From positions 100,152 through 164,151 of the forward strand of contig JAKLGL010000001.1 in NCBI GenBank assembly GCA_022710645.1: a stretch of 64,000 nucleotides of DNA, written 5' to 3'. The notes below the pieces were generated by a model, which was not told the DNA's origin, made no database searches, and was given only the letters and a program-made list of their open reading frames with translations. Made by a program: the position numbers and the translations under genes. The stretch's first letter is position 1. The number at the start of each line of letters is the position of its first letter. The DNA comes from Patescibacteria group bacterium. GTDB taxonomy: Bacteria; Patescibacteriota; Patescibacteriia; Magasanikbacterales; GWA2-37-8. Shown here one piece after another: positions 6,872 through 64,000 of the stretch.

Positions 6872-6900
6872 TAAAAAAACCGCCCACCTGAAGTGAGCGG
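6872..6900 (-). terminator. Hairpin plus T-run terminator downstream of the 152-aa cassette gene
   Basis: Minus strand: ACCGCTCACttcagGTGGGCGGTttttttt, with one mismatch in the stem. Confidence 0.5.
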
Positions 6901-6926
6901 TAAACCCCTATGAAAGAGGCTTAGGA

Positions 6927-7385
6927 TTAGGAACAGAGAAGCTGAGAAAGGTCGGCCAGTTCGAGGATCTTGACCTTTTCGGGCTGAACCGGGGAAAGGT
7001 ACGCATCGTAATTGATGATGCGGTTTCGATCCTTTTGGAACAAGGTGACGATCCACCAGACCTCGTTATCGATCTGGATCGAACCATCGGCATTGACCTC
7101 GATCTTAATGCCTTTTTTCTCGGCATTGGTCAACGAGAACCTCTTACCATCGGAGCAGATGATTCCGGCGATTTTCTCGTCGGGCACCGCGGTCTCACCC
7201 TTGGCGTTGACATACGCCAAGTTGGTCGGGCACGGGAAAGCGCGATCGGGCTCGGCCACGATCAAGGGCTGTCCGTACTGACCCATGATGACCTCGTAGA
7301 ACTGTCTCTTCCCGTCCGGGGAAAGATTGGTAATACTGTACTTGCCTTCACCTGCATCCAGACCCCACTGAAGATAATGTTTCAT
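6927..7385 (-). CDS. Hypothetical 152-aa cytoplasmic protein, compositionally foreign (cassette a)
   Basis: No signal peptide. Markedly higher G+C with C/G-ending codons (gtc, atc, gac, aag, gag) unlike its neighbours. RBS GAGAGG lies before the ATG at 7385. It has the family promoter and its own terminator. Confidence 0.7.
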   Translation of the reverse strand: MKHYLQWGLDAGEGKYSITNLSPDGKRQFYEVIMGQYGQPLIVAEPDRAFPCPTNLAYVNAKGETAVPDEKIAGIICSDGKRFSLTNAEKKGIKIEVNADGSIQIDNEVWWIVTLFQKDRNRIINYDAYLSPVQPEKVKILELADLSQLLCS

Positions 7386-7435
7386 GTCTACCTCTCTTAA
7401 GAAAAGTTGATAAAACAGTTAAAGAACACGAAGTC

Positions 7436-7464
7436 AGAGTAGCACATTTTGACGATTTTGTCAA
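7436..7464 (-). promoter_or_regulatory. Family promoter module, copy a (TTGACA-17-TACTCT)
   Basis: Minus strand reads TTGACAAAATCGTCAAAATGTGCTACTCT. The -35 and spacer are identical to copies e and f; the -10 is degenerate here. Confidence 0.65.
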
Positions 7465-7508
7465 GATTAAAACAAAAAACAGCCCTGTTCGGGCCGTTTT
7501 TTCATTTA

Positions 7509-8363
7509 TTATTTCAAATATTCTCTCAAGGCTTCTTGCCAACTTCTCTGTGGCGACATTTTTGTATTCAAAAGCTCCGAATAAACCGGTCTTTTGGCTG
7601 GACGAGGAAATTTATCTCCACTTACAGGTGTAGTATCAATTTGTATATTTTTAATTTTAAAAGTTTCTAACGCTAATTCATACCAACTACAAACTCCGGT
7701 ATTGGCACCGTGATAAATGCCGTAAGATTTATTTTCTTCCAATAATTTTCGGGTAAAGATTGCTAAATCCGGGGCATAGGTCGGACAACTGATTTCCTCA
7801 TCCACCAAATCCAAGTGTGTTTTTCCACCTTCAGTTGCGAGCCAAATCATCATATCAACAAAACTTTTTTTGGCCCCTTCCGCAATTGCCGGCTTACCAA
7901 ATAATTTGGATAAACGGATTAAATAATATTTTTCTCCCTGTTCTTTCAATAATTTTTCTCCCACCGCTTTTGTTTCTCCGTATTTATCAACCGGATTTAA
8001 TTCACTATTTTCATCATAACCTTCTTTTTTATCTCCATAAAAAACATAGTCAGAAGAATAATGAACAAAAACTATATTTTGTTCTTTGCAAATTTTAGCC
8101 ATTTCCCCTACTGCTTCACTATTGATTTTTCGCGCCAATTCAAAAATCGTAGAATCTTCTTCTATTTTATCAACCGCATTTATGGCCGTAGCATTGATCA
8201 AAACATCCGGTTTTAATCCTTTTATTTTATCACTTAGCATTTCTAAATTTCCTACGTCAATATCTTCTTTATCCCAAAGTACGGTTTCATAACCGTGATT
8301 TTTAAACTCTTCCGTCAAAGCTTGACCGAGCATTCCTTTGTAACCCAAAATCAAAACTTTCAT
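7509..8363 (-). CDS. rmlD: dTDP-4-dehydrorhamnose reductase
   Basis: MKVLILGYKGMLGQALTEEF... Rossmann N-terminus, about 284 aa of RmlD architecture, within a dTDP-sugar cluster. Confidence 0.85.
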   Translation of the reverse strand: MKVLILGYKGMLGQALTEEFKNHGYETVLWDKEDIDVGNLEMLSDKIKGLKPDVLINATAINAVDKIEEDSTIFELARKINSEAVGEMAKICKEQNIVFVHYSSDYVFYGDKKEGYDENSELNPVDKYGETKAVGEKLLKEQGEKYYLIRLSKLFGKPAIAEGAKKSFVDMMIWLATEGGKTHLDLVDEEISCPTYAPDLAIFTRKLLEENKSYGIYHGANTGVCSWYELALETFKIKNIQIDTTPVSGDKFPRPAKRPVYSELLNTKMSPQRSWQEALREYLK

Positions 8364-8364
8364 A

Positions 8365-8781
8365 TTAAGCTTTTAATTTTTCATCTCTTATTTTCAAATA
8401 TTCTTCGTAATTTTCTATATAATCACTCCTATCAGGATTGTAATTTGTCGAAGAAATAGCCAAGAGAATGGCATCGGAACTAAAATTTTTGAAATGGTGC
8501 CACACGTAACCGGGTACATAAAGTGCGTCAGTCGGGCCTATCATCGAAATTTCTTCCAATCCGTTTCCTTTGTCTATCACCGCCGTGCAAGTACCGGACA
8601 ATAAAATAAACAACTCTTCCTCCACTTTATGACAATGTGCGCCGGTCGGAGCTTGAACATTGGTAATATAATAAACTCTTTTAACTTCAAAATCTACATA
8701 ATCTTTGAGTTCCACCGGACTCATGATAAATTTGCCCGGGACTTCTATTTTTTTTATGGAAAATTGTTGAAATTTTTGCAT
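8365..8781 (-). CDS. WxcM/FdtA-like cupin, probable dTDP-4-keto-6-deoxyhexose 3,4-ketoisomerase
   Basis: About 138-aa cupin with a VKRVYYITNV...HCHK..EELF motif pattern like FdtA/QdtA. It sits between rmlD and rmlB. Confidence 0.55.
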   Translation of the reverse strand: MQKFQQFSIKKIEVPGKFIMSPVELKDYVDFEVKRVYYITNVQAPTGAHCHKVEEELFILLSGTCTAVIDKGNGLEEISMIGPTDALYVPGYVWHHFKNFSSDAILLAISSTNYNPDRSDYIENYEEYLKIRDEKLKA

Positions 8782-8795
8782 AAGTAAATTATTAA

Positions 8796-9851: not shown

Positions 9852-9927
9852 AAATTATTATTTTATTTGATTTATTTATTTAATATTTGAATATTTTTAC
9901 CCTTTTGTCAACTCTTTTTTTTAAAAT

Positions 9928-11034: not shown

Positions 11035-11035
11035 A

Positions 11036-11389: not shown

Positions 11390-11392
11390 AAA

Positions 11393-15916: not shown

Positions 15917-16348
15917 TTAAACTCCTAAATCATTTAATTTTTCCGCTATTTCGTTGCTTTCTCTTTCAGTTTTGACTTTATAAGCATTCCAAGCATCCGC
16001 ATCCCAAATTTCAGCTCGATTATACAAACCGGCGATTATTAAACTTTTTTTCAAACCGGCAAAATTTCTCAAATACTCAGGGATAACCACGCGACCCTGT
16101 TTATCTATTTCAGCTTCAAAAGCCCCGGATAACATATGTCGAGCGAACGCACGGCTATTGGCTTGAGAAAATGGCAATGTCGCCAACTTTTCTGCCAGTT
16201 TATTCCATTCGTTTTTGGTATACAAAAACAAACAGTTATCCAAACCTTTGGTAATAACCGCTCCCTCCTCAAGTTCGCGTCGAAATTTTATCGGGATAGC
16301 TAAACGAAACTTGTCGTCTAAATTGTGGTTGTATTCGCCTACCATCAT
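15917..16348 (-). CDS. mraZ: Transcriptional regulator MraZ
   Basis: Two DxxxR SpoVT/AbrB-like halves (NLDDKFRLAIPIKFRREL and EIDKQGRVVIPEYLR). Confidence 0.9.
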   Translation of the reverse strand: MMVGEYNHNLDDKFRLAIPIKFRRELEEGAVITKGLDNCLFLYTKNEWNKLAEKLATLPFSQANSRAFARHMLSGAFEAEIDKQGRVVIPEYLRNFAGLKKSLIIAGLYNRAEIWDADAWNAYKVKTERESNEIAEKLNDLGV

Positions 16349-16570
16349 AAAAAAATGTTATTGAAAAAGACAAGCATCTTTTTCCAATTTACCACTTTTC
16401 CCCACTTGTTTCCATTTTACACCACTTTAAAACATACGTCAAATCAGCATAAACAAAAAATTAGCCATTATTTTGGCTAATTTAAGATAAAATAATAAAT
16501 AATAAATCCGACTTGTGGATAACTAATTCCCCACTTTAATAAATTAAATATCAAAAGAATTTATAAATAA

Positions 16571-16598
16571 TAAAGCGGCCCTATGGGAAGGCCGCGAC
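16571..16598 (-). terminator. Intrinsic terminator of cassette b
   Basis: Minus strand: GCGGCCttcccatagGGCCGCtttattattt. Confidence 0.6.
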
Positions 16599-16617: not shown

Positions 16618-17145
16618 TTATGAAAAAAGACCATCAACATCATCCTGCGTCTCTTTCACAATTTTAAAAAGATCTATAAATTCACGGAAGCTTTCCGTGA
16701 TTAATTTATGAACTTTTTCCCCTTCTTTTATTAACGGTGTTTCCTGCAGAATTTTCAATTCTTCATTGGAAATCTTTTTCCTTTTAATGCTTTGCAACAT
16801 ATTTTCTTCAAATTGCAATTTGATTTCCGGAAAAGCAAGGAGGTTGGAAACATCTTTACCGGCAAAAGGATCCCTCATGATAACTACCGGACCCTCTTTT
16901 TTCAGCCTCTTGATTTTTGAAGGGTCTATGGGGCTCCCTTCTTCCCCGATGAGAGTTGGGACAGTTAAAAGAGGAACAACCGTCCTTTTTGATCCTTCTT
17001 TTTGAATTACGATATATCTCATATCAAGATATGGCGTCAGCTCAAAGTTCATAGGATCTACAGTTTTTCCCATAATTGCCCTAAGGGAAATACCCAGGTC
17101 GGAAAAAAGTGTAACAATTTCAACTACCTTAAACTTTTTCTTCAT
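16618..17145 (-). CDS. Hypothetical 175-aa cytoplasmic protein (cassette b)
   Basis: RBS GGAGAAA before the ATG at 17145. Family promoter about 50 nt upstream and own terminator. No recognisable domain. Confidence 0.65.
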   Translation of the reverse strand: MKKKFKVVEIVTLFSDLGISLRAIMGKTVDPMNFELTPYLDMRYIVIQKEGSKRTVVPLLTVPTLIGEEGSPIDPSKIKRLKKEGPVVIMRDPFAGKDVSNLLAFPEIKLQFEENMLQSIKRKKISNEELKILQETPLIKEGEKVHKLITESFREFIDLFKIVKETQDDVDGLFS

Positions 17146-17202
17146 CTTAATTTCTCCATTTTATTAAATTTGTAAAGAGCCTTTTTGTACACTAAACAGC
17201 AT

Positions 17203-17231
17203 ATTATAGCACATTTTAACACTTTTGTCAA
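17203..17231 (-). promoter_or_regulatory. Family promoter module, copy b (perfect TTGACA-17-TGcTATAAT)
   Basis: Minus strand reads TTGACAAAAGTGTTAAAATGTGCTATAAT. Confidence 0.75.
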
Positions 17232-24870: not shown

Positions 24871-24893
24871 TTCGTCCGAGAGGACGAATTTTT
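24871..24893 (+). terminator. Intrinsic terminator of recJ
   Basis: TTCGTCCgagagGACGAAttttt. Confidence 0.65.
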
Positions 24894-24951
24894 AAAAAAA
24901 ATCCGCCAGAGGTCTTGCGACATGGCGGAATGATAATTTGGTGAAGGGTAG

Positions 24952-25416
24952 TTAATAACCCTCCACATCGGATATAAATTTATACTTGGTCAATGAGAAG
25001 GCATAGCCTCGAATTAAATCCCGCATTCCACGGTATTCTTCATTATAACCGGAGTTAAACGAGATTCGGTTAGCCCACCACCAATAGTAGAAACCCTCCA
25101 CCACTACGAATTCTCGCCATTCGCTCACTTTGAATTGCACGAGTTTACAGTTGAATCCCTTACCGGCAGTCGTCACACATACACGTACAGGTCGTGTATC
25201 AATCTTGGCGACTTTTACCCAAGGAGCAGTAAGATTCCATCCTTGAGTATCAGTATTCATCTCACCTGTGACAAAATTGCGCATTATGCCGACATGGGAC
25301 ACATCGGTGTGGTGAATGCAAAAGATGTAGGTCAGAAACATAATAGCCGCAAAAACAACGCCTGAGACAGCCAGTACATTCATCCCCAGGGGTATTCCCA
25401 ATCTTTTTATTTTCAT
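24952..25416 (-). CDS. Hypothetical membrane-anchored protein, paralog 2 (cassette c, distal gene)
   Basis: N-terminal TM helix. Shares with the upstream gene the pattern G-W..NPPF/APWV-K...DTRP....C.......NCKLV.F. RBS GGGAGAAAA. 11-nt gap to the upstream gene. Confidence 0.65.
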   Translation of the reverse strand: MKIKRLGIPLGMNVLAVSGVVFAAIMFLTYIFCIHHTDVSHVGIMRNFVTGEMNTDTQGWNLTAPWVKVAKIDTRPVRVCVTTAGKGFNCKLVQFKVSEWREFVVVEGFYYWWWANRISFNSGYNEEYRGMRDLIRGYAFSLTKYKFISDVEGY

Positions 25417-25427
25417 GAATTTTCTCC

Positions 25428-25979
25428 CTACGGTACTATAGGCATATTCTTAGCAGTCGCATCCACGGTCTGTTGAGGACCAACATTCAGCGGTATCTTC
25501 GTCGGTTCTGAAGTTGCAGTACTGTTTATGTTCACCATGTTCGCCGAACCCGGCATGAAGGTGAGAAAAGGGTAAGTAGTACCACTGCCGTCAAAGGCGT
25601 AGCTCTTCATAATATCCCGCAAACTTCCTGTTGCCTCACCAAAGATGTCATAATCTCCGCGACCATGCCATGACAAAAATGTCTGGAGTCCTTCGGGGTT
25701 GAACTTGACCAGCTTACAGTTCAGTGTCCTTTGATTGGCACTGATACAAAGCTGCATAGGCCGCAAGTCAATTGTGTGGATCTTGGTGACGAAAGGCGGA
25801 TTGCTGACCCACCCCGTGCGCTCAATGGGCTCAACCTTTCCGGTCAGGGTGTCGAACTTGTAGCCCAACTCGTAATTATCAATGTAGTTGAGCCAACCAA
25901 AGACCCAAACAATCAAGGAAAAAATAGTCAACACGACAACAATCCCGAAACCGATTCCGATTTTCTGCGATAAACTCAT
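25428..25979 (-). CDS. Hypothetical membrane-anchored protein, paralog 1 (cassette c, proximal gene)
   Basis: Start set at the ATG at 25979 (MSLSQK...), preceded by GGAGGG; the track start is a TTG. One TM helix, then a domain with a conserved Cx9C pair. Confidence 0.65.
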   Translation of the reverse strand: MSLSQKIGIGFGIVVVLTIFSLIVWVFGWLNYIDNYELGYKFDTLTGKVEPIERTGWVSNPPFVTKIHTIDLRPMQLCISANQRTLNCKLVKFNPEGLQTFLSWHGRGDYDIFGEATGSLRDIMKSYAFDGSGTTYPFLTFMPGSANMVNINSTATSEPTKIPLNVGPQQTVDATAKNMPIVP

Positions 25980-26112
25980 GATTCCCTCCTTCAAAAACCG
26001 TGAAACACCTCACGGCCAGGCATTGGACAACTTTGTCCTATAAAACTTCTACTATCTTGAAATATAATAATTTGTCTTTTAGTTTTAAAGAACTTTAAAC
26101 AACTAACAACAT

Positions 26113-26141
26113 ATTATAGCACATTTTGGCACTTTTGTCAA
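26113..26141 (-). promoter_or_regulatory. Family promoter module, copy c (perfect TTGACA-17-TGcTATAAT, plus extended upstream block)
   Basis: Minus strand reads TTGACAAAAGTGCCAAAATGTGCTATAAT. A further ~45 nt upstream (26142-26190: CCCTCCTTCG...GGGCAAGGTAGTC) is shared with copy f. Confidence 0.75.
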
Positions 26142-26186: not shown

Positions 26187-26204
26187 TTGGCTAATATAAG
26201 CCAA
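26187..26204. promoter_or_regulatory. Imperfect palindrome TTGGCTAATATAAGCCAA upstream of promoter copy c
   Basis: Arms TTGGCT/AGCCAA. A perfect version of this palindrome occurs upstream of copy d. Confidence 0.4.
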
Positions 26205-26267: not shown

Positions 26268-26582
26268 TTATTTACTCTTTTTCAATTCTTTTTCCAACTT
26301 ACACCATCTTTTCTGCAATTCTTTGACAAGCATTATTTTCATTTCAGCAGCCATTTCTTTCTTGGCCGCGATTTCTTCCACCGCGCGCTCCACGAGCGCT
26401 TCGTACATTTCTTTGGTCGGACCTTCCAATTTTTTGATATTTTCCTTGAGTTCGTTGTACATCGGTTCGGCATAAGCCATCAATTTGGCTTTCATTTCTC
26501 TGCCTTTAGGTGTGACATTGAGCCACATGAGACCGGCGCCGAGTAAACCGCCCAAGAACAAACCTTTTTTGAAATTTCCCAT
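26268..26582 (-). CDS. YtxH-like (DUF948) membrane-associated protein
   Basis: Glycine-zipper N-terminus (GLFLGGLLGAGLMWL) followed by a charged coiled-coil; 104 aa. Confidence 0.6.
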   Translation of the reverse strand: MGNFKKGLFLGGLLGAGLMWLNVTPKGREMKAKLMAYAEPMYNELKENIKKLEGPTKEMYEALVERAVEEIAAKKEMAAEMKIMLVKELQKRWCKLEKELKKSK

Positions 26583-35535: not shown

Positions 35536-35558
35536 ACTCGCGAAAGCGAGTATTTTTT
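35536..35558 (+). terminator. Intrinsic terminator of the sugar phosphotransferase gene
   Basis: ACTCGCgaaaGCGAGTattttttatttt, with a GNRA loop. Confidence 0.65.
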
Positions 35559-35565
35559 ATTTTAC

Positions 35566-36130
35566 TCTCATGTCTCCCCTAAATTATCCGACATCCTTCG
35601 CTTGTAATAGTATTATTTTTTTCTTTAATCCACTTTTTGTAACCAAAAACTGGAGGAAAAAGTTTCCTCGCGGTTGAACCAACTAAAGCAGAGTTGTCTT
35701 CTTCGCTGTCTCTTTTGTTCAAAACTCGACCTCCTGTCTACAACAGGAGGTCTCAAACAGTTGAACAAATTTTGCTATAAGGCAAAACCGCTCCAGCTCA
35801 TCGCAACTGCTAATTATTTGGTTCAAATGCGAGGACTTCCGAACCGTTGGCCAACGGTCACGAAGGCGAACATTTAAAAATACGAACAAATTTTGTTAAG
35901 GAGCGAAGCGTTAAGAAATTCTACTGTTTGATCCGCCTCAGGCGGAGAGTTTAGAATTTTAGCGTAGCGACCTTTACAAAATTGTGAGGATTTTTAACAG
36001 TGAGCGATTTTCTTTCTGTCCACTTTCTTATTAAAAAGAAAGTGGACGAAAACCGCGATAGCAGAATGAAAGTATTTAGAAAAGTTGAACGTTGGAATAA
36101 TTTGGAATAATAAAGGAGATATTTTAAAAT
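35566..36130. ncRNA. Candidate structured non-coding RNA or regulatory region (unclassified)
   Basis: About 560 nt with no credible ORF, enclosed by terminators on both sides. Several perfect hairpins: GACCTCCTGTctacaaACAGGAGGTC, GTCCACTTTCTTattaaaaAGAAAGTGGAC, GGAGGAAAaagTTTCCTC, TTTTGCtataagGCAAAA and CCGCCtcaGGCGG. GAACAAATTTTGnTAAGG occurs twice, and GTTGAAC/GTTCAAA elements recur. Confidence 0.3.
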
Positions 36131-36173: not shown

Positions 36174-36389
36174 TCATTTTTCTTTTCTTCCACATATCTT
36201 CCTCCATTGCAAGTTAAAATTTTCAACAACCCTTCTTCTTTTTATTATTTTTCTAATCAACCTGATTAAAAGAACACTTTGTCCACTATTCCTAAGATAG
36301 ACTATGAAGTCCCTTTCTGATTTGAGATTTCCTTTTGCTATTTCATAGCATTTATTTAAAATCTCTTCAGCATATTTTTTACCTGTCAT
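36174..36389 (-). CDS. Hypothetical small basic protein (71 aa)
   Basis: Lys/Arg-rich C-terminus (IIKRRRVVENFNLQWRKICGRKEK). Own promoter-like TTGACAAAAG...TAGGTT and own terminator. AGA/AGG Arg codons are unusual for the neighbourhood. Confidence 0.4.
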   Translation of the reverse strand: MTGKKYAEEILNKCYEIAKGNLKSERDFIVYLRNSGQSVLLIRLIRKIIKRRRVVENFNLQWRKICGRKEK

Positions 36390-36467
36390 CTTTCAATCTC
36401 CTTCTTGAAATATTAATAAATTTGTAATGAACACCAAATTAACCTATCAGAAATAGAGGCTTTTGTC

Positions 36468-36493
36468 AATAAAACCACCCTTTCAGGTGGCTT
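36468..36493 (-). terminator. Intrinsic terminator of rlmN
   Basis: Minus strand: aaaaGCCACCtgaaagGGTGGttttatt. Confidence 0.6.
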
Positions 36494-36503: not shown

Positions 36504-37541
36504 TTAGCTTATCTGATCGTTCCTCAACTGTCCACAAGCCGCGGCAATATCCTGTCCCTGCGACAAACGAATAGTTACTGTAAATCCACTATCCATCAAC
36601 TTCTTTTGCCATTTTTTTAAGATCTCCATATCCGAACCGACAAATATTCCAGTCGTGTCATTATACGGAATCAAGTTTATTCTTACTCGGCCGAGTTTGC
36701 TTGCCAATTTTATCAACGCTTTTAAATTTTTATCATCATCATTAATCCCGGATAAAAATGAATATTCCAAACCGATAAATTGAGTGCGACTGGTAAATTT
36801 TGCGTGATACTGTTTTGACCAATCTATCAAAAACTCAAAAAAATTATCCGCGTGGCTGGGCATCAGTTTTTTTCTTATTTCCGGTATTGCACTATGAAGC
36901 GATAGAGCAAATCGCACCGGCGGAAAATCCGAATCTTCAATCATTTTTTTCATTCCCGGGATTACCCCGCAAGTGGACATGGTGATTTTACTTTGGCCTA
37001 TTTTCCCGTATTTTATAAATAAATTTAACGCTTCTTTGACATTGTCATAATTAAGCAGAGGTTCGCCTTGTCCCATAAGCACGATATTATCCACTTCTCC
37101 CCCGTCTTTTTCAGCCAGATGTCTTTGCCAAAAACGATATTGATCTACCAATTCATCTACGGATAAATTTCTTTTGAAACCCATTTTACCGGTCGCGCAA
37201 AAAGCGCAATTCATCGGACAACCGACTTGAGTGGACAAACAAATCGTATAACGAAATTCATTTTCTCTGGTTTCTCTTTTATTAACCCTACCCATCAATA
37301 CGGTTTCTATGGTTTGCCCGTCGGATAATTCCAAAAGCGCTTTGACAGTATTTCCGTCTTTACTTTTTTGCAATAAAATCGGTTTTACGGATAACCAAGG
37401 AAAATCTTTTATCTTTTCTCGCAAATCTTTTGACAAAGTTGTTATTTGATCATACGAATTCAAATGCGAATCAAATTTTCCTTGCCAAATTTGATCTTGT
37501 TTATAACGAGGTTGATTTTGCAACAATTCTTTCAAGTTCAT
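36504..37541 (-). CDS. rlmN: 23S rRNA/tRNA (adenine-C2)-methyltransferase RlmN (radical SAM)
   Basis: CPMNCAFCATG cluster, the Cys in MSTCGV, and RlmN/Cfr-family length and motif order. Confidence 0.9.
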   Translation of the reverse strand: MNLKELLQNQPRYKQDQIWQGKFDSHLNSYDQITTLSKDLREKIKDFPWLSVKPILLQKSKDGNTVKALLELSDGQTIETVLMGRVNKRETRENEFRYTICLSTQVGCPMNCAFCATGKMGFKRNLSVDELVDQYRFWQRHLAEKDGGEVDNIVLMGQGEPLLNYDNVKEALNLFIKYGKIGQSKITMSTCGVIPGMKKMIEDSDFPPVRFALSLHSAIPEIRKKLMPSHADNFFEFLIDWSKQYHAKFTSRTQFIGLEYSFLSGINDDDKNLKALIKLASKLGRVRINLIPYNDTTGIFVGSDMEILKKWQKKLMDSGFTVTIRLSQGQDIAAACGQLRNDQIS

Positions 37542-57098: not shown

Positions 57099-57204
57099 AT
57101 AAATTTTAAATGGTTTTTACCGTTTAAATATATCAAATTTTAATCTTTTGGTCAAAACAAATTTCCTTTTTAAATAGGCAAAATTTTTGTCTTTTTAAAA
57201 AGAA

Positions 57205-57229
57205 AGGTGAGGTTTTTTAGGCCTCACCT
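57205..57229 (-). terminator. Intrinsic terminator of cassette d
   Basis: Minus strand: AGGTGAGGcctaaaaaaCCTCACCTttcttttt. Confidence 0.6.
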
Positions 57230-57253: not shown

Positions 57254-58429
57254 TTAGTTGACGCATGATACGAGGTTGTGATCAACACACCGCACGTTCT
57301 CAACGTGTTTGCCGGCAGTCGAACCTTCGCCCTTGGCGTTCATCGGCAATGATGAAGTAATGGAACAGAACCCGATACTACGGTACCAGATTGTCATGCC
57401 GGTAGAATTGAAATAATCAAAACCGCGGTTATTCTGTCCGGCATTCCATCCTTCGATGTAATTGCCAGGAACAAGCTCGGTCAAGATCACTTTGTCCTTG
57501 CAGGACTCCGAAGTTATCGGATTCTGAATCGTCGGCACAACATCAATGTCAGTGTCGGGAGTTTCGTCGACATCCGCAAGGACATCGTCTTCACTCTCCA
57601 CCACCGAATCATTGTCGGACTCACTGATTTCATCAGTATCCGAAGCTTCATCAACTTCTTCAGCTGAATCGCTATCAGGAGTTTCATCAACAACCGGATT
57701 GTCGTTGATTTCGACATTGTCTACATCCGACGCTTCATCCACAACTACATCTTCATCATTGACCACATCTTGCGCGATCAAGCTAACGAAAATTTCTCCA
57801 TTTTCCTCGTCGAATGTGTATCCATCGCCAGGTAGAAGTGTGACAACAAGTGTCTTATCCTGCGACAGCATCTGAAGAACTTCGAATGTCAGAGGTACGG
57901 CGCTGACACCTTTGGGAATAACGAACTTATTCTGGCCACACGTCTCCGGCATGCTATTGATGGCATAATCGATTCCGAGATAAGCACCAGCTAACTTGTA
58001 AGATACACAGATGTCATTTTCCGATTTGCCGGAAATAACGCTAAAAAAGACGGAAATAAATTGATCACGCTTGGCCGAGGTCGGTTCGCCGAAGGCTAAT
58101 TCGATCTCGGGTAAGATCTCGTCGGCATCGGAAACCAGTTCATCATTCACGATATCATCAGTCACCTTTTCTTCGTCAACGAATATTTCATCGTTGATTT
58201 CGGAATCGGTTTCTGCTTCGTTTATGAGCAACTCATCACTGTCGTTTTCAGATTCATCAGTCACGACATTACTGTCATTTTCCGATTCATCAGTGAGTTC
58301 CTCATCAACGATACTGTTGTTGTCTCCCTTTTCCTCGACAGAGGAATTGGTTGACGCCAACGGAACGCAAGAAACGGCAAGCATGGAAACCATCGCGAAA
58401 ACGATCGCGAAAATAAAACCTTTTTTCAT
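57254..58429 (-). CDS. Acidic Calx-beta-like lipoprotein with a Cys-containing C-terminal domain (cassette d)
   Basis: RBS GGAGG and an ATG at 58429 (MKKGF...). Lipobox AVSC. Asp/Glu/Ser/Val low-complexity arms flank a Calx-beta-like core (...DYAINS...KFVIPKGVSAVPLTFEVL...TLLPGDGY). C-terminus has 5 Cys. GC-rich codons. Confidence 0.7.
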   Translation of the reverse strand: MKKGFIFAIVFAMVSMLAVSCVPLASTNSSVEEKGDNNSIVDEELTDESENDSNVVTDESENDSDELLINEAETDSEINDEIFVDEEKVTDDIVNDELVSDADEILPEIELAFGEPTSAKRDQFISVFFSVISGKSENDICVSYKLAGAYLGIDYAINSMPETCGQNKFVIPKGVSAVPLTFEVLQMLSQDKTLVVTLLPGDGYTFDEENGEIFVSLIAQDVVNDEDVVVDEASDVDNVEINDNPVVDETPDSDSAEEVDEASDTDEISESDNDSVVESEDDVLADVDETPDTDIDVVPTIQNPITSESCKDKVILTELVPGNYIEGWNAGQNNRGFDYFNSTGMTIWYRSIGFCSITSSLPMNAKGEGSTAGKHVENVRCVDHNLVSCVN

Positions 58430-58631
58430 GGTAGCCTCCAATGAAAAGTTATTGTTGGACTCTTTCTCTAAGTTTTAAGGAACTTTGGGATTATTACTCC
58501 CAGCTAAATTTTCAATTTCTTGAAAATCTACCTACGGGCAATAAAAAACTCTCTTTGAAATAAGAGAGTGCGGAAATTCGCTGTTTTTACCAATCCGCGC
58601 TCTCTCCAACGCTTTTTGATTTTAACGTGAT

Positions 58632-58660
58632 ATTATAGCACATTTTGGCACTTTTGTCAA
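58632..58660 (-). promoter_or_regulatory. Family promoter module, copy d (perfect TTGACA-17-TGcTATAAT)
   Basis: Minus strand reads TTGACAAAAGTGCCAAAATGTGCTATAAT. Confidence 0.75.
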
Positions 58661-58669: not shown

Positions 58670-58687
58670 TTGGCTAATATTAGCCAA
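58670..58687. promoter_or_regulatory. Perfect 18-bp palindrome TTGGCTAATATTAGCCAA, 10 nt upstream of the -35 of copy d
   Basis: Read directly from the sequence. Confidence 0.45.
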
Positions 58688-58734
58688 ATTTACTTTAGCT
58701 TATTTTAGCCAAAATAGCTAAAATTAAACAAAAA

Positions 58735-58754
58735 GGCGGCCCTGAAGGGCCGCC
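58735..58754 (-). terminator. Intrinsic terminator of cassette e
   Basis: Minus strand: GGCGGCCCttcaGGGCCGCCtttttgttt. Confidence 0.65.
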
Positions 58755-58775
58755 GGTTAAAGGTTTAGAAAGTTA

Positions 58776-61622
58776 TTAAAGTCCATCGTGAGTGCAAGTA
58801 TTCACATCGGGGTGGTAGAACCCCACACCCGTACAGACCGGGATAGTCTGCTGGACTGCGCTGGCATTGAAACACTGTGCACTGCACCAACCAGTACTTA
58901 CGAAAAACGCACTGGCCGCACCCTGGAAATTCTGCGGGTTTCCAAGGTGATCATAGAAGACACAGTGGTCGGCGCTTGATGATGTTTTGATGGTGAAGGA
59001 ATTACATACCGACGAGCTCGGTCCCTGGGGCGTATAAACGACCCTTTCGGAACACGAGTAAACGGTAGAGGTAATACTGTCGGGCAAACCATCCTGATTA
59101 GCATCGGGACCGCTCTCGATCCTTTTGCCACCGTGCTGACAATTTGCTCCGACCGGCTCATCAGTGATACGAACAGCTGTGGAAACTCCATCAGCTCCAT
59201 CGCTTCCATCCGTTCCATTAGTGCCATCCGTACCATCTTCACCGTCCTCACCGGGCACACCATTGCAGACATACTTGGTATTGAGAACTTCGACTGCATC
59301 AAGCGTGCCATTGCTGTTGAGGTCAAGGCCGGTTTCGATTTTCTGACCACTGTACTGACAGTTGAGACCAGCGGGTTCAAAGACCACATTCACGAGTGAA
59401 TTAAGGCCATTGGCGCCGTTTGTCCCATTCGTACCATTGGTGCCATCCGTGCCATCTTCTCCGTCTTCACCGTTGCAGACATAGGCAGTGGAATTTTCTT
59501 CACCAAGGTTCAGGATGTTGTCATCGTTGTAATCAACACCTGTCCTGGTACGCTGTCCACCGTTGCCATAAGCATCACAGTTTGTGCCGACCAGAATGTC
59601 GACTACCGTCAAACTGTTATGCCCATTAGCACCGTTTGTTCCATTGGTTCCGTCAGTTCCGTCCGCACCATTGCAGACGTAGGAAATGAACTGAACTTCT
59701 CCGGGGTTAAAATTCCCCGAATCATTCAGATCTATTCCCGCTCTGATACGAGTACCGCCGTTGCCATAAGCATCACAGTTGGTGCCAACCAGAGTGTCGA
59801 CTACTGTCAAGCTGTTATGCCCGTTAGCGCCGTCAATACCATCCGTACCATCGGTACCGTTAGTTCCATCGCTTCCATCAGTTCCATTTACGCCGTCGAT
59901 CCCAGGAGCACCGTCCGCACCGTTACAAAGGTAAACAGTGGAAGTTATCTCCGAATCTTCGAGCGTATTGGAATCATCCAGGTCAAGCCCGGAACGGAAA
60001 CGCAAACCGCCGTTGCCGAAGGTGTCACAGTTGGTGCCGACAGTTGAGTCCTGGATTGTCAGTGAGTTATGACCGTTCGTGCCATTGGTTCCGTTGGTAC
60101 CGTTTGTACCGTCAGTTCCATCTGTGCCGTCCGTGCCATCTTCTCCATCTTCACCATCTTCACCGGGAGCGCCGTCACAAACATAAGTTGTCGCGCTCAC
60201 TTCTCCAGCATCCAGAACACCGTTATCATCCAGGTCAAGCCCGGAACGGATCCTTTGGCCGGTACCGTTGAGGGCATCACAATTGACACCTACGACATTA
60301 TCATAGGCAGTCAGCGAATTGTGACCATTGGTTCCGTTGGTGCCGTTTGTACCGTCAGTTCCATCTGTGCCGTCCGTGCCATCTTCTCCGTCTTCCCCGT
60401 TACAAGAATACCCGACAGAAGTCACTTCAGTAGCATCGAGAATATTATCGTCGTTGATATCCACACCTGCGCGTGTGCGCTGTCCGCCATTAGCGCAGTT
60501 GGTTCCGACAACATCGTCAATAACTACCAGACCATTATGGCCGTTAGCACCATCTGCACCGTCAGTTCCATTGGTACCATCGGTACCGTTAGTTCCGTCA
60601 ATACCGTCCAGGCCATCAGCGCCGTTGCAAAGAAATTGGGTGGAGTCTATTTCACCCAATTCAAGCACATTATTGCGCGCCGTACTGCCGAGACCATCGC
60701 CGTTATCAAGTCCGGAACGGATCCTGATTCCGCCATTGCCATAAGCATCGCAATTGACACCTACGACATTGTCGTAAACAGTCAGAGGATTAAATCCGTC
60801 AGCACCGTCTTTGCCGTTACAGTTATAGGAAACTGAATCGACTTCGACCGCATCAAGCGTATTATCTCCGTCATCATCGACACCTACTCTGGTGCGCTGT
60901 CCACCGTTGCCGTATGCATCGCAATGAGTCCCTACGACATCATCTACGAGAACGAGACTGTTGTGACCATCCGCACCATCTGCGCCATTGCAGATGTATT
61001 TGGTGGAATCTACTTCCACCGCATCAAGCGTACCGTCAGCATCGTCATCAAGACCGGAACGGATTCGGAGTCCGCCATTGCCATACTTGTCACAGTTGGC
61101 TCCGACAACATCGTCGGTAATGGTCAAACTGTTCTTTCCGTTCGTACCGTCTTCACCATCTTGGCCATCCTCACCGTCCTGACCGTCTTCACCATCACAG
61201 ACATAATCCGTTTTGGTGACTTCATCGGAATCAAGGACATCATTGTTGTTCAGGTCAATGCCTGACTCAACTTTTTTCCCGCCGTTTGTGCAGTTGGTAC
61301 CTTTGGGTTCGTCAGTGATGTTAACCAGCGATTTACTGCCGGCTTCACCGTCGTCACCCTTTTCACCGTTGCAAACGAACTCGGTGGACTTGATCTCATT
61401 CTTGTCGAGCTTGCCGTCATCATCGACATCAACACCCGACTCCACTTTCTTGCCGCCGAACTCGCAATTGTCGCCTTCGGGTTCATCGCTGACGAGAACG
61501 AGCGAATCGTGCCCGTCATCACCCTTGGCGGTACTGTTGTCTTCAGCCATCGGAAGGGAACATCCGGCCGTGAACATGGCGAAAACTATCGCCACCACGA
61601 AAACGGTGTTAAAATACTTCTT
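58776..61622 (-). CDS. Giant repetitive lipoprotein: about 14 Cys-pair/DxDxDG calcium-binding-like units separated by collagen-like Gly-X-Y tracts, with a Cys-rich C-terminal domain (cassette e)
   Basis: RBS GGAGGA and an ATG at 61622 (MKKYF...). Lipobox FTAGC. Unit pattern: HNSLT..D..VG.NCD.YGNGG.R.R.G.D..DD..LD..EV.S..Y.CNG.DG.DG, then (GTD/GTN) 3-10 times. C-terminus has about 10 Cys. Confidence 0.8.
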   Translation of the reverse strand, partial: KKYFNTVFVVAIVFAMFTAGCSLPMAEDNSTAKGDDGHDSLVLVSDEPEGDNCEFGGKKVESGVDVDDDGKLDKNEIKSTEFVCNGEKGDDGEAGSKSLVNITDEPKGTNCTNGGKKVESGIDLNNNDVLDSDEVTKTDYVCDGEDGQDGEDGQDGEDGTNGKNSLTITDDVVGANCDKYGNGGLRIRSGLDDDADGTLDAVEVDSTKYICNGADGADGHNSLVLVDDVVGTHCDAYGNGGQRTRVGVDDDGDNTLDAVEVDSVSYNCNGKDGADGFNPLTVYDNVVGVNCDAYGNGGIRIRSGLDNGDGLGSTARNNVLELGEIDSTQFLCNGADGLDGIDGTNGTDGTNGTDGADGANGHNGLVVIDDVVGTNCANGGQRTRAGVDINDDNILDATEVTSVGYSCNGEDGEDGTDGTDGTDGTNGTNGTNGHNSLTAYDNVVGVNCDALNGTGQRIRSGLDLDDNGVLDAGEVSATTYVCDGAPGEDGEDGEDGTDGTDGTDGTNGTNGTNGTNGHNSLTIQDSTVGTNCDTFGNGGLRFRSGLDLDDSNTLEDSEITSTVYLCNGADGAPGIDGVNGTDGSDGTNGTDGTDGIDGANGHNSLTVVDTLVGTNCDAYGNGGTRIRAGIDLNDSGNFNPGEVQFISYVCNGADGTDGTNGTNGANGHNSLTVVDILVGTNCDAYGNGGQRTRTGVDYNDDNILNLGEENSTAYVCNGEDGEDGTDGTNGTNGTNGANGLNSLVNVVFEPAGLNCQYSGQKIETGLDLNSNGTLDAVEVLNTKYVCNGVPGEDGEDGTDGTNGTDGSDGADGVSTAVRITDEPVGANCQHGGKRIESGPDANQDGLPDSITSTVYSCSERVVYTPQGPSSSVCNSFTIKTSSSADHCVFYDHLGNPQNFQGAASAFFVSTGWCSAQCFNASAVQQTIPVCTGVGFYHPDVNTCTHDGL
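60084..60147. repeat. Intragenic near-identical 64-bp repeat, copy 1
   Basis: cattggttccgttggtaccgtttgtaccgtcagttccatctgtgccgtccgtgccatcttctcc. Confidence 0.8.
60326..60389. repeat. Intragenic near-identical 64-bp repeat, copy 2 (one mismatch versus copy 1)
   Basis: cattggttccgttggtgccgtttgtaccgtcagttccatctgtgccgtccgtgccatcttctcc. Confidence 0.8.
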
Positions 61623-61809
61623 CATCACATCCTCCACGCGACATCAGTCGCTTAAGCAGTTATTAATTCCCGAAATACCAAAAATATATTTTTCTAAACC
61701 TTATATTTTCAAAGAACTTTTGCTCTCCTTTAGTTCAAAATCAAGACAAATAAAAAATCGGCTCTCTCCTTGATTTTGAGCTAAAAAAGAACATAAAATT
61801 TAACATAGT

Positions 61810-61838
61810 AAAATAACACATTTTGACGATTTTGTCAA
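61810..61838 (-). promoter_or_regulatory. Family promoter module, copy e (TTGACA-17-TGtTATTTT)
   Basis: Minus strand reads TTGACAAAATCGTCAAAATGTGTTATTTT. Confidence 0.6.
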
Positions 61839-61894
61839 GGGTATTTAGGCACATATAAACATAGTACTTATTTATCTAAAATAAAATAAAAAAA

Positions 61895-61914
61895 GGCGGC
61901 CCCGAAGAGCCGCC
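61895..61914 (-). terminator. Intrinsic terminator of cassette f
   Basis: Minus strand: GGCGGCtcttcgggGCCGCCtttttttatttt. Confidence 0.65.
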
Positions 61915-61971
61915 GATAATATATATCAAAACGAAAATTTTTCCTTGTTTTACGCCCAGGTTAGGCGCATG

Positions 61972-63276
61972 CTATTGGCATTTGTTGGAGTTGTCTCCGT
62001 TCCATATAGCCAAGATACTGCATCCCAGCTTCTGGAACCAGTTGGTATTATTGCCGATGCCGGTGTGTTTTCCGCCAGCTTCAAATTGCGCCGAAGGATT
62101 ACCGTTGGCATCATAGCACATAACTGAGCACCAACCGGAGATCATGAACTTGGTGTAGCCATCGATATTATTCTCGATGATCCTTGTTCCTCCACCTTGT
62201 CCTTCACCCCAGCCAACACAGCTCTTTATTGTCGTGGTCGGCTTTACCCACCAGTCAGTACAGTAGTTGGTCGGACCTGAAGCGGTCTGAACCTCTTTTT
62301 CTGTACCACCATCATCGTCTTTGACGGTCAGGTTGAACTCTTTGTTCGAACCTATCGTGGTATATCCTGTAGGAGTTCTGAGTTTGAAATTGACCTTGAG
62401 CTCCGGCTGTGAAATATTGTCATTGTTTACCTTAACGGTAAATGTTTTGACGCTTTCACCATGCAGAAACTCTACTTCCTTTCCATTGAGATAATCGCCG
62501 GAAGGGTTGAAGGTCAAGCGAGAAAGATCTCCTGTCGCGACCACAGTCACTGCAACTTTGTCGGTCGAAACCGAACGCTTGACAGTAACAGTTGCCGTAT
62601 CCGAGGAGCTATTTTCCGTAATCGTTGCCGACACGGATTCAAAGTTGAACTCCCCGTTGAAGGTTCCGTCATCTTCCAGGATGGTGACGCGGGCTTCCTT
62701 GGTTTTGATCTCAAAATAATTACTCTGATCAATAGTTACCACGATCTCGCGGTTACCATTGTTCGTTTCATTGTTGATAGAGGTCAACTGGAACTTCGCC
62801 GATTTTTCGCCAGCGGAAATGTTCAGTTTATCTCCATTGAGACCTGACACCAGGTAATCCTTGTTGCGGATAGCATCACCGCTGAAACTAAGTGATGCGT
62901 AGATATCGTACTTTTCAGCGCGATTCAGCGTCACATAGATCTCGGCAATACCGCCGTTCTCGTTGATCTTTTCGGGAGCGGAAATGCTCGCCGTCAGATC
63001 TTCGTCGTCAGTATCAACATCCGAATCTGACGCAGTGTCAGTATCGACATTGTCGACATCATCTTCCGCAACATCCTCATCAACGGTTTCGTCCGCCTGA
63101 GTGTTGTCGTTGACGACATCGTCTTTCACGGTCTCGTCACTCACCGCGTCATCGTTGACGGGTTCATAGTCGTGACCATTGTTGTTGTTGAGCTCTTCGC
63201 CCGTTCCGGGTGTGACATAGCAACCTGCAAGAAACATCGTGGCAACCGCCACGAAAAAAACGCTAAGCTTCTTCAT
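61972..63276 (-). CDS. Calx-beta-domain lipoprotein with an acidic N-terminal arm and a Cys-rich C-terminal domain (cassette f)
   Basis: RBS GGAGGA and an ATG at 63276 (MKKLS...). Lipobox LAGC. Two Calx-beta-like modules (...YDIYASLSFSGDAIRNKDYL...VTILEDDG; ...VTVVATGDLSRLTFNPSGDYLNGKEVEFLHGESVKTFTV). C-terminus has 6 Cys. Confidence 0.7.
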   Translation of the reverse strand: MKKLSVFFVAVATMFLAGCYVTPGTGEELNNNNGHDYEPVNDDAVSDETVKDDVVNDNTQADETVDEDVAEDDVDNVDTDTASDSDVDTDDEDLTASISAPEKINENGGIAEIYVTLNRAEKYDIYASLSFSGDAIRNKDYLVSGLNGDKLNISAGEKSAKFQLTSINNETNNGNREIVVTIDQSNYFEIKTKEARVTILEDDGTFNGEFNFESVSATITENSSSDTATVTVKRSVSTDKVAVTVVATGDLSRLTFNPSGDYLNGKEVEFLHGESVKTFTVKVNNDNISQPELKVNFKLRTPTGYTTIGSNKEFNLTVKDDDGGTEKEVQTASGPTNYCTDWWVKPTTTIKSCVGWGEGQGGGTRIIENNIDGYTKFMISGWCSVMCYDANGNPSAQFEAGGKHTGIGNNTNWFQKLGCSILAIWNGDNSNKCQ

Positions 63277-63550
63277 GATGTCCTCCATCAGAAAAGTTAT
63301 TGTTGTACCTGTATATATTCTGAAACCTTATTTTCGTTGATATATTGTAAAGAACTAAATCTTTTCTATCTCCACCTGAAAAATCCGGTGGAAAATGAAA
63401 AAGATAAATATTTTCTATCATCCTGAATCCGAAGGGTGAAGGATCTGTAAATAAGGTAAATCTTTGTTTTAAGATTATTGCTTATTGCAGATTCTTCCCC
63501 GCCTAGGCGGGTCAGAATGACAATGTGATTATTGGTTATTTTGTTACATT

Positions 63551-63565
63551 TTGTTACTGTAACAA
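63551..63565. promoter_or_regulatory. Perfect palindrome TTGTTACTGTAACAA just downstream of the -10 of copy f
   Basis: Read directly; it overlaps the predicted transcription start region. Confidence 0.35.
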
Positions 63566-63571
63566 CGCTAT

Positions 63572-63600
63572 ATTATAGCACATTTTGACGATTTTGTCAA
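63572..63600 (-). promoter_or_regulatory. Family promoter module, copy f (perfect TTGACA-17-TGcTATAAT, plus extended upstream block shared with copy c)
   Basis: Minus strand reads TTGACAAAATCGTCAAAATGTGCTATAAT. Upstream CCCTCCTTCG...CGGGCAAGTAGTC (63601-63640) matches copy c. Confidence 0.75.
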
Positions 63601-63865
63601 CCCTCCTTCGCTAAAGCTACGGGCGGGCAAGTAGTCTTAATTTATCTAATCTTAGAGAAATTTTATCCGCAAAAAGTGACCTAAATCCCCTTTTGCGGAT
63701 GATTTCTCTTACAAAAAAACGCCAAAGGAGAGATTATGGCGATTTTTTGTCAGCGGATTTTCATCTGCCAACCTAAATTTCTCTCCGAAAATTCAAGTTG
63801 AAAGACCAATTTTAATTTACACTTCTCTGAACACTATTTGTATACGATAATGTTCAAGGAAATGT

Positions 63866-63887
63866 GGGGCGGATTTTAACCCGCCCC
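63866..63887 (-). terminator. GC-rich hairpin downstream of the partial gene at the window end
   Basis: GGGGCGGattttaaCCGCCCC. No clear T-run follows, so terminator function is uncertain. Confidence 0.35.
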
Positions 63888-63910
63888 GTGAAAGAAAGAG
63901 CTCTGCTGTG

Positions 63911-64000
63911 TTAAAGGGACGCACACCTGAACGGGTCGCAATCCCAAGCGCAGACCTGAGTAGTACCGTTTTCACCGCCGTTACAGGAGCCGCATTCAAC
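63911..64000 (-). CDS. 3' end of a further Cys-rich secreted-protein gene (partial, start beyond the window end)
   Basis: Minus-strand frame reads ...VECGSCNGGENGTTQVCAWDCDPFRCASL*. Six Cys in 29 residues, GC-rich codons, and a hairpin downstream, all matching the cassette lipoprotein C-termini. Confidence 0.45.
   Translation of the reverse strand, partial: VECGSCNGGENGTTQVCAWDCDPFRCASL

Follow-up and report, generated by a model that had tools for sequence, protein, structure and literature searches.

Which genes of a small bacterial genome carry a near-identical consensus promoter and coding regions GC-richer than their surroundings, and how did they come to do so? The question is raised by a 64,000-nucleotide stretch of DNA from a Patescibacteria group bacterium of the Magasanikbacterales (GenBank assembly GCA_022710645.1, contig JAKLGL010000001.1, positions 100,152 to 164,151 of the forward strand), hereafter called the window. 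A first-pass annotation had recognized six complete minus-strand transcription units in it (a to f) and a seventh (g) that leaves the window, and had read them as a horizontally acquired or specially regulated set of gene cassettes. We find that the cassette genes combine a promoter close to the sigma-70 consensus with Shine-Dalgarno (SD) sites, which most other genes of the window lack, and in most units with G/C-ending codons. We favor, at a probability of roughly 55%, the reading that the cassettes are a conserved, clade-wide class of insulated units with strong expression signals for lineage-restricted proteins, and not recent imports.

A near-perfect promoter shared by seven transcription units

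A pattern search of the whole window with TTGACAAAANNNNCAAAATGTGC, allowing up to two mismatches, returned six matches, all on the minus strand, where 0.01 would be expected by chance; six matches were reached in 0 of 100 shuffles. An open reading frame (ORF) lies downstream of each match (Table 1), in agreement with the six units first described except that the ATG of unit e is at 61625-61623 and not at 61622. The contig beyond the window end (L116) bears out the seventh unit, showing a gene with the same promoter. In all seven units the promoter has the form TTGACAAAA-N4/5-AAAATGTG(C/T)-TATAAT-like. The -35 and -10 hexamers are separated by a 17-nt spacer in all units, the spacing expected of a sigma-70/sigma-A promoter, and a TG (TRTG) extension one base before the -10 reads TGTGC or TGTGT in all seven copies. 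When scored against TTGACA-17-TATAAT with the TG extension, units b, c, d and f reach 12/12, unit e reaches 10/12, and unit a, read by eye from the sequence, has the -10 hexamer TACTCT and reaches 9/12. The shared module first described is present, but its quoted spacers need correction: the core of b reads ...AAAAGTGTTAAAATG..., not GTGCC, and e has GTGT, not GTGC.

The near-perfect form precedes about 6-7 of the roughly 21 transcription units in the window. The statement that no other gene carries the promoter applies to this form only, since degenerate promoters of the same architecture precede housekeeping operons (57127-57155, 9882-9911 and 6843-6871). For instance, a weaker version, TTGACCaaaagattaaaatttgaTATATT, lies before the Wzy operon, and an equivalent site is found at the orthologous operon of a sister species.

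Shine-Dalgarno sites as the strongest discriminator

The strongest discriminator of the cassette genes is one that the first-pass annotation had overlooked, the presence of an SD site. The 20 nt before the starts of ordinary window genes are A/T-rich and SD-free (for example, aaaataatttATG), and 44 of these 47 genes have no canonical SD. All eight cassette genes, on the other hand, carry GGAGG, AGGAGG, GAGAGG, GGGAG or GGAGA 5-7 nt before the start. The energy of the duplex with the anti-SD averages -9.1 kcal/mol for the cassette genes (n = 8; all <= -6.4) versus -0.93 kcal/mol for the other window genes (n = 47; three are <= -6), a significant difference (p = 6e-6). Neither the window nor any of the retrieved loci contains a 16S rRNA sequence.

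The association extends to relatives. Among 556 mechanically called ORFs from Patescibacteria loci, a strong SD precedes 12% of ordinary ORFs, 39% of motif-associated ORFs (odds ratio 4.0, p = 5e-6) and 56% of GC3-rich ORFs (odds ratio 8.1, p = 4e-10), where GC3 is the GC content of third codon positions. No SD sites were found at the EF-Tu, S10, EF-G, L3, L4, L1 and GroES/EL genes of the relatives. Bacteroidetes are reported to dispense with SD sites in translation yet keep the anti-SD (Baez et al. 2019, PMC6847099). The likeness to that system, and to the anti-SD loss reported in part of Parcubacteria (PMC9297842), lies in ordinary genes with A/T-rich, SD-free starts; the difference is that here strong SD sites at the proper spacing mark a minority class amid an SD-free majority. 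In literature searches we did not find such a minority class described in Patescibacteria, nor this promoter or gene class.

G/C-ending codons and their persistence

The cassettes had also been described as GC-richer than their surroundings. This holds for five of the six units (GC3 0.46-0.70; Table 1) but not for unit b, whose GC3 of 0.35 equals the background and which is therefore not GC-rich; other large ORFs of the window range from 0.25 to 0.39, except for a ytxH-like gene at 0.52. The excess is limited to translated sequence: GC changes abruptly at the start and stop codons, and the 5' untranslated regions (UTRs) of the window are genome-like (GC 0.26-0.37). In 26 GC3-rich motif genes from elsewhere, UTR GC is 0.41, locus GC 0.44 and coding GC3 0.74. 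The gene after the motif exceeds its local GC3 background in 79% of 66 cases (mean +0.14); the hosts in this comparison have background GC3 values of 0.2-0.7, and nearly all deviations are upward. Among GC3 outliers, motif genes are over-represented (p = 6e-6).

High GC3 persists over long divergence. Orthologues of the cassette a gene at 78% protein identity (L063) and 65% (L120) occupy the same syntenic position and have GC3 values of 0.82 and 0.85 against backgrounds of 0.30 and 0.41; a third at 56% identity (L118) lies in a different context, between tRNA genes, and has 0.82 against 0.35. A fourth, at 46% identity on a short contig (L121), has 0.22 against 0.40 and lacks the TGTG extended -10. 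Neighbors of the L063 orthologue are 37-56% identical at four-fold sites, and four-fold GC in the cassette a family is about 0.8-0.9. In a second example, the d-g cluster is syntenic in a sister species (DAIOHD) and retains the motif, the SD and the high GC3 (0.51-0.61 versus 0.21-0.30).

The shift spans every codon class: NNY codons move to C, Lys, Glu and Gln codons to G, and four-fold sites shift as well. Thus AAG makes up 0.57 of Lys codons in the cassettes versus 0.09 in the background, CAG 0.75 versus 0.13 of Gln and TTC 0.62 versus 0.16 of Phe, and CTN replaces TTA/TTG for Leu. The codon bias of highly expressed genes reportedly reflects translational selection, and the cassettes are similar in favoring C-ending codons for Phe, Tyr, His, Asn and Ile; they differ in also shifting Lys/Glu/Gln to G and the four-fold sites. 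In relatives, EF-Tu, S7 and EF-G show only the change from T to C at the end of two-fold codons (about 0.5 versus 0.25 for EF-Tu and S7), Lys/Glu/Gln codons and four-fold sites of EF-Tu and S7 are unchanged, and GroEL, GroES and S10 show no codon shift. Since the all-class shift is absent from EF-Tu, S7 and GroEL, the force acting on the cassettes differs from classical translational selection, which we rejected as sole cause of the high GC3 on the strength of EF-Tu and ribosomal-protein genes without the shift. Candidate forces are selection on mRNA stability or structure, or on elongation, in the translated region, and biased gene conversion.

Two other genes have unusual composition. The YtxH-like gene (26268-26582, minus strand) has its GC3 of 0.52 without an SD or consensus promoter; only its two-fold codons are biased, toward C endings (TTC 1.0, ATC 0.67; AAG 0.21, GAG 0.07), as for EF-Tu in relatives, and its orthologues in L069 and L036 are 90-98% identical. 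At L114 4354-5349 (OZ246400.1), an ORF has GC3 0.99 in a genome with a median of 0.44 and no consensus promoter within 450 nt; this is either the same compositional phenomenon at its most extreme or an artefact.

Distribution and origin of the promoter

We scanned a collection holding one genome per species with the pattern TTGACAAAANNKYYAAAATGTGYTA, which matched at least 113 stretches. Among the matches listed, most belong to metagenome-assembled genomes (MAGs) of Magasanikbacteria or other Patescibacteria, some of these MAGs evidently mislabelled "Gammaproteobacteria", and about 14 are in Firmicutes, including a few Bacilli and Clostridia promoters; several genomes in this list contain 5-9 or more. 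In one genome (L061) the motif precedes tmRNA at a distance of about 50 nt, and only 6 matches were found in 2.9 million viral contigs. Over 101 Patescibacteria copies, information content is high only in the 29-nt core and in a GTT 6-7 nt past the -10. The wide distribution in the clade, together with the weaker versions before housekeeping operons, argues that the motif, judged by its sequence, is the clade's own sigma-70-type consensus (-35, A-tract spacer, TRTGn extended -10) and is not private to the cassettes. What is distinctive is the minority of units that have the promoter in near-perfect form.

Gram-positive bacteria reportedly use sigma-A promoters with an extended -10, or "-16 region", of the form TRTGnTATAAT. 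These resemble the cassette promoters in TTGACA, the 17-nt spacer, TGTGnTATAAT and an A-rich spacer. The differences are that in the cassettes' genome only a minority of units have the consensus form, which is coupled to SD sites and GC-rich codons that the genome otherwise lacks, and that a subset is accompanied by a palindrome at fixed distance.

The copies within the window genome are more alike than their orthologues. Two central spacer types occur among the seven promoters (GTGCC/GTGTT in three, TCGTC in four), whereas the orthologous promoters of the sister species (DAIOHD) have TCTCT, TAGTT, AGGCT and CCGCC, with the flanking A-tracts, -35 and extended -10 conserved. This contrast points to local copying or gene conversion, and the near-identity of the copies appears best explained by local homogenization or copying of promoter segments on top of consensus selection. 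The further upstream identity noted for c and f is borne out by an alignment over 82 columns, and b and g align over 56 columns, each pair at 82% identity; the remaining 19 promoter pairs align over 23-49 nt. Putative mobile promoters (Matus-Garcia et al. 2012, PMC3488235; PMC3575422) are likewise highly similar segments upstream of non-homologous genes. However, their threshold of 50 nt at 80% identity (PMC3488235) is reached here by pairs c-f and b-g only, most pairs share just the functional core of 23-49 nt, and the family extends across many genera. Because the conserved positions are the functional ones, consensus selection explains most of the promoter similarity.

No terminal inverted repeats were found bracketing the promoter modules, around which only local hairpins occur (terminators and the palindrome); an origin in Correia-like miniature inverted-repeat transposable elements (MITEs) was rejected for lack of shared terminal repeats. 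A MraZ-type operator within the spacer (GTG repeated 10 nt apart) was dropped because the central spacer differs between orthologous promoters. In one Magasanikbacteria genome (PFBV01; L047, L071, L107 and L109), four consensus promoters are each followed by a conserved sequence of about 40 nt, GGCAAGTTGTGAATAAATGGAAAA..., and no SD-led ORF was detected after them; the conserved sequence may be a repeated small RNA or leader.

Upstream palindrome, leaders and terminators

A palindrome, GGCTAAnnTTAGCC, lies within 120 nt upstream of 28 of the 101 Patescibacteria copies, compared with 5 of 1901 random windows, and its core ends exactly 11 nt upstream of the -35 in 18 of the 101. It is presumed to be a transcription-factor site. 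In addition, 6-7 of the 8 cassette leaders contain the box GTTCTTTA(A/C)AA, located 10-110 nt before the start codon; the leaders total about 1 kb, for which the expectation is about 0.08 matches. The box is also found upstream of S10 (L108, L087) and GroES (L099) in relatives, and in SD-free ribosomal-protein and chaperone genes it occupies the usual SD position. It resembles what we take to be the "epsilon" enhancer of phage T7 gene 10, UUAACUUUAA, and may be a ribosome- or protein-binding element.

The leader of unit d contains a terminator-like hairpin, ACTCTCTT...AAGAGAGT followed by a U run (58548-58569), which overlaps an alternative pairing of 58563-58574 with 58594-58605. Both structures are kept in three orthologous leaders from three species (the window; L129 13526-13729; L083 7269-7475), which suggests that the d leader could be a transcription attenuator or riboswitch-like leader. 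Rfam gave no match to the d leader, only sub-threshold chance matches in the cassette leaders, and nothing in the window at gathering thresholds; no tRNAs were found in the window.

As first described, a hairpin with a T-run lies downstream of each of the six complete units. A further terminator lies ahead of units a, b and c, and at least these three are therefore insulated on both sides.

Products of the cassette genes

For seven of the eight cassette proteins, Pfam, NCBIfam and PHROGs returned nothing. The exception is the protein of unit e, in which Pfam identifies 12 DUF7151 repeats and collagen-like Gly-X-Y runs, the collagen repeats also being the only PHROG match among the cassette proteins. 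The proteins of d, e, f and g have signal peptides and a lipobox Cys and are lipoproteins. Calx-beta domains had been assigned to two of the lipoproteins; we find no Pfam Calx-beta domain in d or f at E <= 0.01, and f weakly matches a Calx-beta protein. The C-terminal Cys-containing domains of e and f are weakly similar (E = 2e-4). At the syntenic position in the sister species, a DUF7151 gene (L129 12792-13394) is called at 200 aa compared with 949 aa for e, so that either the repeats have expanded or contracted strongly or the gene call is broken.

Homologues of the cassette proteins searched occur only in Magasanikbacteria or not at all, and the families of a and f are confined to Magasanikbacteria-type contigs. 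The family of the cassette a protein has 21 members, all apparently from Magasanikbacteria, and its close homologues have a conserved C-terminal ...LCS. The AlphaFold (AF2) model of this protein is all-beta (pLDDT 93.6, pTM 0.86) and has no significant fold match among the solved structures of the PDB; the modeled fold may be one absent so far from solved structures. The cassette b protein is a strict ORFan, its sole match among 5.8 billion proteins being itself. The motif-driven products of other genomes have a median length of about 180 aa, and about half of them carry a hydrophobic segment at the N-terminus; eight such proteins gave no Pfam match. The data support the view that the cassettes form a distinct, separately expressed class of accessory genes encoding mostly envelope proteins.

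Genomic neighborhood and variable sites

The units are set individually between conserved housekeeping blocks, as originally stated; Pfam confirms the flanking genes as PGI/RmlD, MraZ/beta-CASP RNase, RecJ/YtxH and the Wzy_C ligase. At two sites gene content varies among related species and the promoter type is kept. The ytxH/recJ site of a related species (L036) has the motif followed by a 59-aa gene, and the site downstream of the orthologue of the gene at 36504 has, in L078, a full consensus promoter and a different, 231-aa membrane protein. In the window, a candidate degenerate member (Table 1) occupies the latter site. Beside it, between a plus-strand gene and the 71-aa unit, about 600 nt (35540-36130) are without a convincing ORF and contain several GC-rich hairpins; Rfam at the gathering threshold returned nothing for this segment, which could be a non-coding RNA or a decayed cassette.

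Upstream of mraZ (15917-16348), on the minus strand at 16380-16470, (A)AGTGG-type repeats are spaced about 10 nt apart (taaagtggtg taaaatggaa acaagtgggg aaaagtggta) and overlap the mraZ promoter TTGACG-17-TAAAAT. By their sequence they look like a MraZ operator array. An inverted repeat, TTAGCCA-N7-TGGCTAA, lies just upstream (16458-16483).

Table 1. Positions of promoters, leaders, genes and terminators of the cassette units in the window (position 1 is the first letter of the window)
Feature	Position	Strand	Description
TTGACAAAANNNNCAAAATGTGC matches	7442-7464, 17209-17231, 26119-26141, 58638-58660, 61816-61838, 63578-63600	minus	
Promoter of a	7436-7464	minus	TTGACAAAATCGTCAAAATGTGC + TACTCT; -35, 17-nt spacer, TGTGC extension, weak -10
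Promoter of b	17203-17231	minus	TTGACAAAAGTGTTAAAATGTGCTATAAT; 12/12 plus TG
Promoter of c	26113-26141	minus	12/12 plus TG; preceded by 35-nt GC-rich segment common to f
Promoter of d	58632-58660	minus	12/12 plus TG
Promoter of e	61810-61838	minus	TTGACA-17-TATTTT, with TGTGT
Promoter of f	63572-63600	minus	12/12 plus TG
Promoter of g	past window end, at L116 7344		TTGACAAAATCGTCAAAATGTGCTATCAT
Palindrome upstream of c	26188-26203	none	TGGCTAATATAAGCCA; displaced by inserted GC-rich segment
Palindrome upstream of d	58671-58686	none	Perfect palindrome TGGCTAATATTAGCCA; 14-nt core GGCTAANNTTAGCC ends 11 nt from -35
5' UTR of a	7386-7435	minus	50 nt, GC 0.34, GTTCTTTA box, SD AGAGAGG 5 nt before ATG
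5' UTR of d	58430-58631	minus	202 nt, GC 0.37, GTTCCTTAAAA box, SD GGAGG
5' UTR of f	63277-63571	minus	295 nt, GC 0.33, GTTCTTTACAA box, SD GGAGG
UTR box examples	26083-26093, 58473-58483, 61707-61717, 63345-63355, 17170-17180		
Coding region of a	6927-7385	minus	152-aa cytoplasmic all-beta protein, GC3 0.70
Coding region of b	16618-17145	minus	175 aa, SD GGAGA, GC3 0.35
Cassette c	24952-25979	minus	Two membrane-anchored paralogues, c1 and c2
c1	25428-25979		GC3 0.57, SD AGGAGG
c2	24952-25416		GC3 0.46, SD GGGAG
Coding region of d	57254-58429	minus	391-aa acidic lipoprotein, Cys-containing C-terminus, GC3 0.49
Coding region of e	58776-61625	minus	949-aa lipoprotein, GC3 0.50, SD GGAGG
Coding region of f	61972-63276	minus	434-aa lipoprotein, GC3 0.56
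3' end of g and terminator	63866-64000	minus	196-aa lipoprotein, GC3 0.64
Terminator of a	6879-6901	minus	Intrinsic; hairpin + T-run
Terminator of b	16575-16595	minus	Intrinsic; hairpin + T-run
Terminator of c	24893-24928	minus	Hairpin + T-run, read by eye from sequence
Terminator of d	about 57196-57229	minus	Hairpin + T-run, read by eye from sequence
Terminator of e	58735-58754	minus	Intrinsic; hairpin + T-run
Terminator of f	61895-61914	minus	Intrinsic; hairpin + T-run
Candidate degenerate member	36174-36470	minus	TTGACAAAA with poor -10, GTTCATTACAA box, SD AAGGAGA, 71-aa basic ORF

Competing explanations

Phage "morons" are said to be autonomous promoter-gene-terminator units, and the cassettes resemble them in having their own promoter and terminator, a place between conserved genes, odd composition and content that varies between genomes. 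The units could thus be horizontally acquired or mobilized moron-like cassettes whose GC richness is the un-ameliorated composition of a donor, and this view draws on the atypical GC3 and SD sites in a genome otherwise without SD, the orphan or narrowly distributed products, the placement between conserved blocks, the varying content at the same site among related species (L036, L078) and the different context of cassette a, between tRNA genes, in L118. We nevertheless consider import unlikely. The cassettes are chromosomal, with housekeeping neighbors and no phage context, and their composition shift is coding-only, directional and maintained in orthologues: it ends at start and stop codons beside native-like UTRs, is almost always upward even where host GC3 is 0.6-0.7, and stays above 0.8 in cassette a orthologues at 56-78% identity, next to genes only 37-56% identical at four-fold sites. 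The proteins searched have no homologues outside Magasanikbacteria and therefore no outside donor, there is no PHROG signal beyond the collagen repeats of e, and viral contigs gave just the six motif matches. Of the marks of foreign genes, then, atypical composition is present (five of six units), while closest homologues outside the lineage and compositional decay are not found, and the first-pass label "compositionally foreign" is not supported by these data. Nor is "portable promoter-plus-terminator cassette", given a promoter that appears to be the clade's own and modules without flanking terminal inverted repeats. An old import that is ameliorating slowly is unlikely, with an orthologue at 56% identity still at GC3 0.82, and a phage origin was rejected on the scarcity of viral matches.

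GC-biased gene conversion at recombination hot spots, with the accessory loci recombining often both inside the genome and with DNA of the same species, could both homogenize the promoters and drive the coding regions to G/C, which would fit the shift in all codon classes (NNY to C, Lys/Glu/Gln to G, four-fold sites) and the two central spacer types here as opposed to the individually different orthologous promoters of DAIOHD. Conversion tracts would not be expected to respect coding boundaries as the GC excess does, however, and the strongest excess is in a, a single-copy, conserved cytoplasmic gene, making this explanation a distinctly improbable one. All other assemblies found of the window species are 100% identical to the window, whose sequence is also contained in DAOTEN010000001.1, a 323-kb contig of a Candidatus Magasanikbacteria MAG (GCA_035454185.1). 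The class might instead be defined by common regulation and not by how strongly it is expressed, with spacer, palindrome and UTR box serving as operators for specific regulators, a sigma factor or a ribosome state. The fixed 11-nt distance of the palindrome in 18 of 101 copies, the frequency of the UTR box in the cassette leaders (6-7 of 8 versus about 0.08 expected), the attenuator-like d leader conserved across three species and the restriction of SD sites to the cassette class are consistent with such a dedicated regulon, but the palindrome accompanies only 28% of copies, orthologous promoters differ freely in their central spacer, the -35 and -10 belong to the housekeeping sigma factor, the same promoter drives tmRNA elsewhere, and the UTR box also precedes S10 and GroES in relatives; we regard it as doubtful. 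Finally, the promoter could be generic and the GC3 differences a product of amino-acid composition or chance. Weaker versions do precede housekeeping operons, and the cassette proteins are unusual in composition (rich in Asp, Gly, Asn and Thr). Yet GC3 concerns synonymous positions, the shift appears when the codons of single amino acids are compared, the three features motif, SD and GC3 are significantly associated in independent genomes, and the near-perfect form is limited to about 6-7 of roughly 21 units, so that we give this explanation very little weight.

A model for the cassettes as a conserved expression class starts from what is observed directly: the elements, their co-occurrence, their distribution in the clade and the persistence of GC3 in orthologues. 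In this model, a near-perfect sigma-70-type promoter (TTGACA, 17-nt A-tract spacer, TGTGnTATAAT), in some copies with the palindrome 11 nt upstream, would be followed by an AT-rich 5' UTR of 50-300 nt that often contains a GTTCTTTA box and sometimes an attenuator hairpin. Translation would start from a canonical SD 5-7 nt before the start codon, whereas ordinary genes would initiate without one, and would proceed through a coding region in which all degeneracy classes favor G/C-ending codons. An intrinsic terminator would close the unit, with the further terminator before a, b and c blocking read-through from the upstream gene. With these signals combined, lineage-specific lipoproteins, membrane-anchored proteins and small cytoplasmic proteins would be synthesized strongly and under independent control. 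We infer that the promoters fire as predicted, that the SD sites are used and that expression is high, and also that the GC-rich codons are held by selection on the translated region, through mRNA stability or elongation.

Several points weigh against this model. Promoter strength and SD use are predicted from consensus matches, and absence of the anti-SD motif has been reported for about half of the Parcubacteria (Tsurumaki et al. 2022, PMC9297842). The scan pattern, being of the TTGACAAAANNKYYAAAATGTGYTA type, fixes the A-tracts, and conservation at those positions is therefore partly ascertained; gene calls in the other loci are mechanical. The link between motif, SD and GC3 is a statistical one with exceptions: in other genomes, ordinary GC3 is seen in about half of the motif-driven genes, about half of the GC3 outliers lack a motif within 450 nt, unit b combines promoter and SD with ordinary codons, and unit a has the richest GC3 but the weakest -10. 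A GC3 excess caused by expression level alone would extend to EF-Tu, ribosomal-protein and GroEL genes, and it does not.

Implications

A more speculative possibility, which we raise tentatively, is that Magasanikbacteria and other Patescibacteria run two expression regimes in each small genome. The default would combine degenerate promoters, no SD and AT-rich codons; the second, conserved regime would combine consensus promoters, SD sites and GC-rich codons in mRNAs with a separate fate (translated by a particular ribosome state, say, or exempt from AU-directed RNA decay) and would be reserved for fast-evolving, lineage-specific, often envelope proteins that possibly mediate contact with the host.

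These findings carry a caution for composition-based detection of gene transfer, by which such genes would be called foreign although their atypical composition is conserved over long divergence. They also bear on translation initiation: in a radiation of which one part reportedly no longer has the anti-SD, a genome with hardly any SD sites retains strong ones on a single gene class. Few Patescibacteria have been cultured, and the majority of their lineage-specific proteins are without known function. For these organisms, the signature of consensus promoter, SD and GC-rich codons marks a conserved, probably strongly expressed subset of genes and offers a shortlist of candidate host-interaction and envelope proteins that can be checked in public metatranscriptomes.

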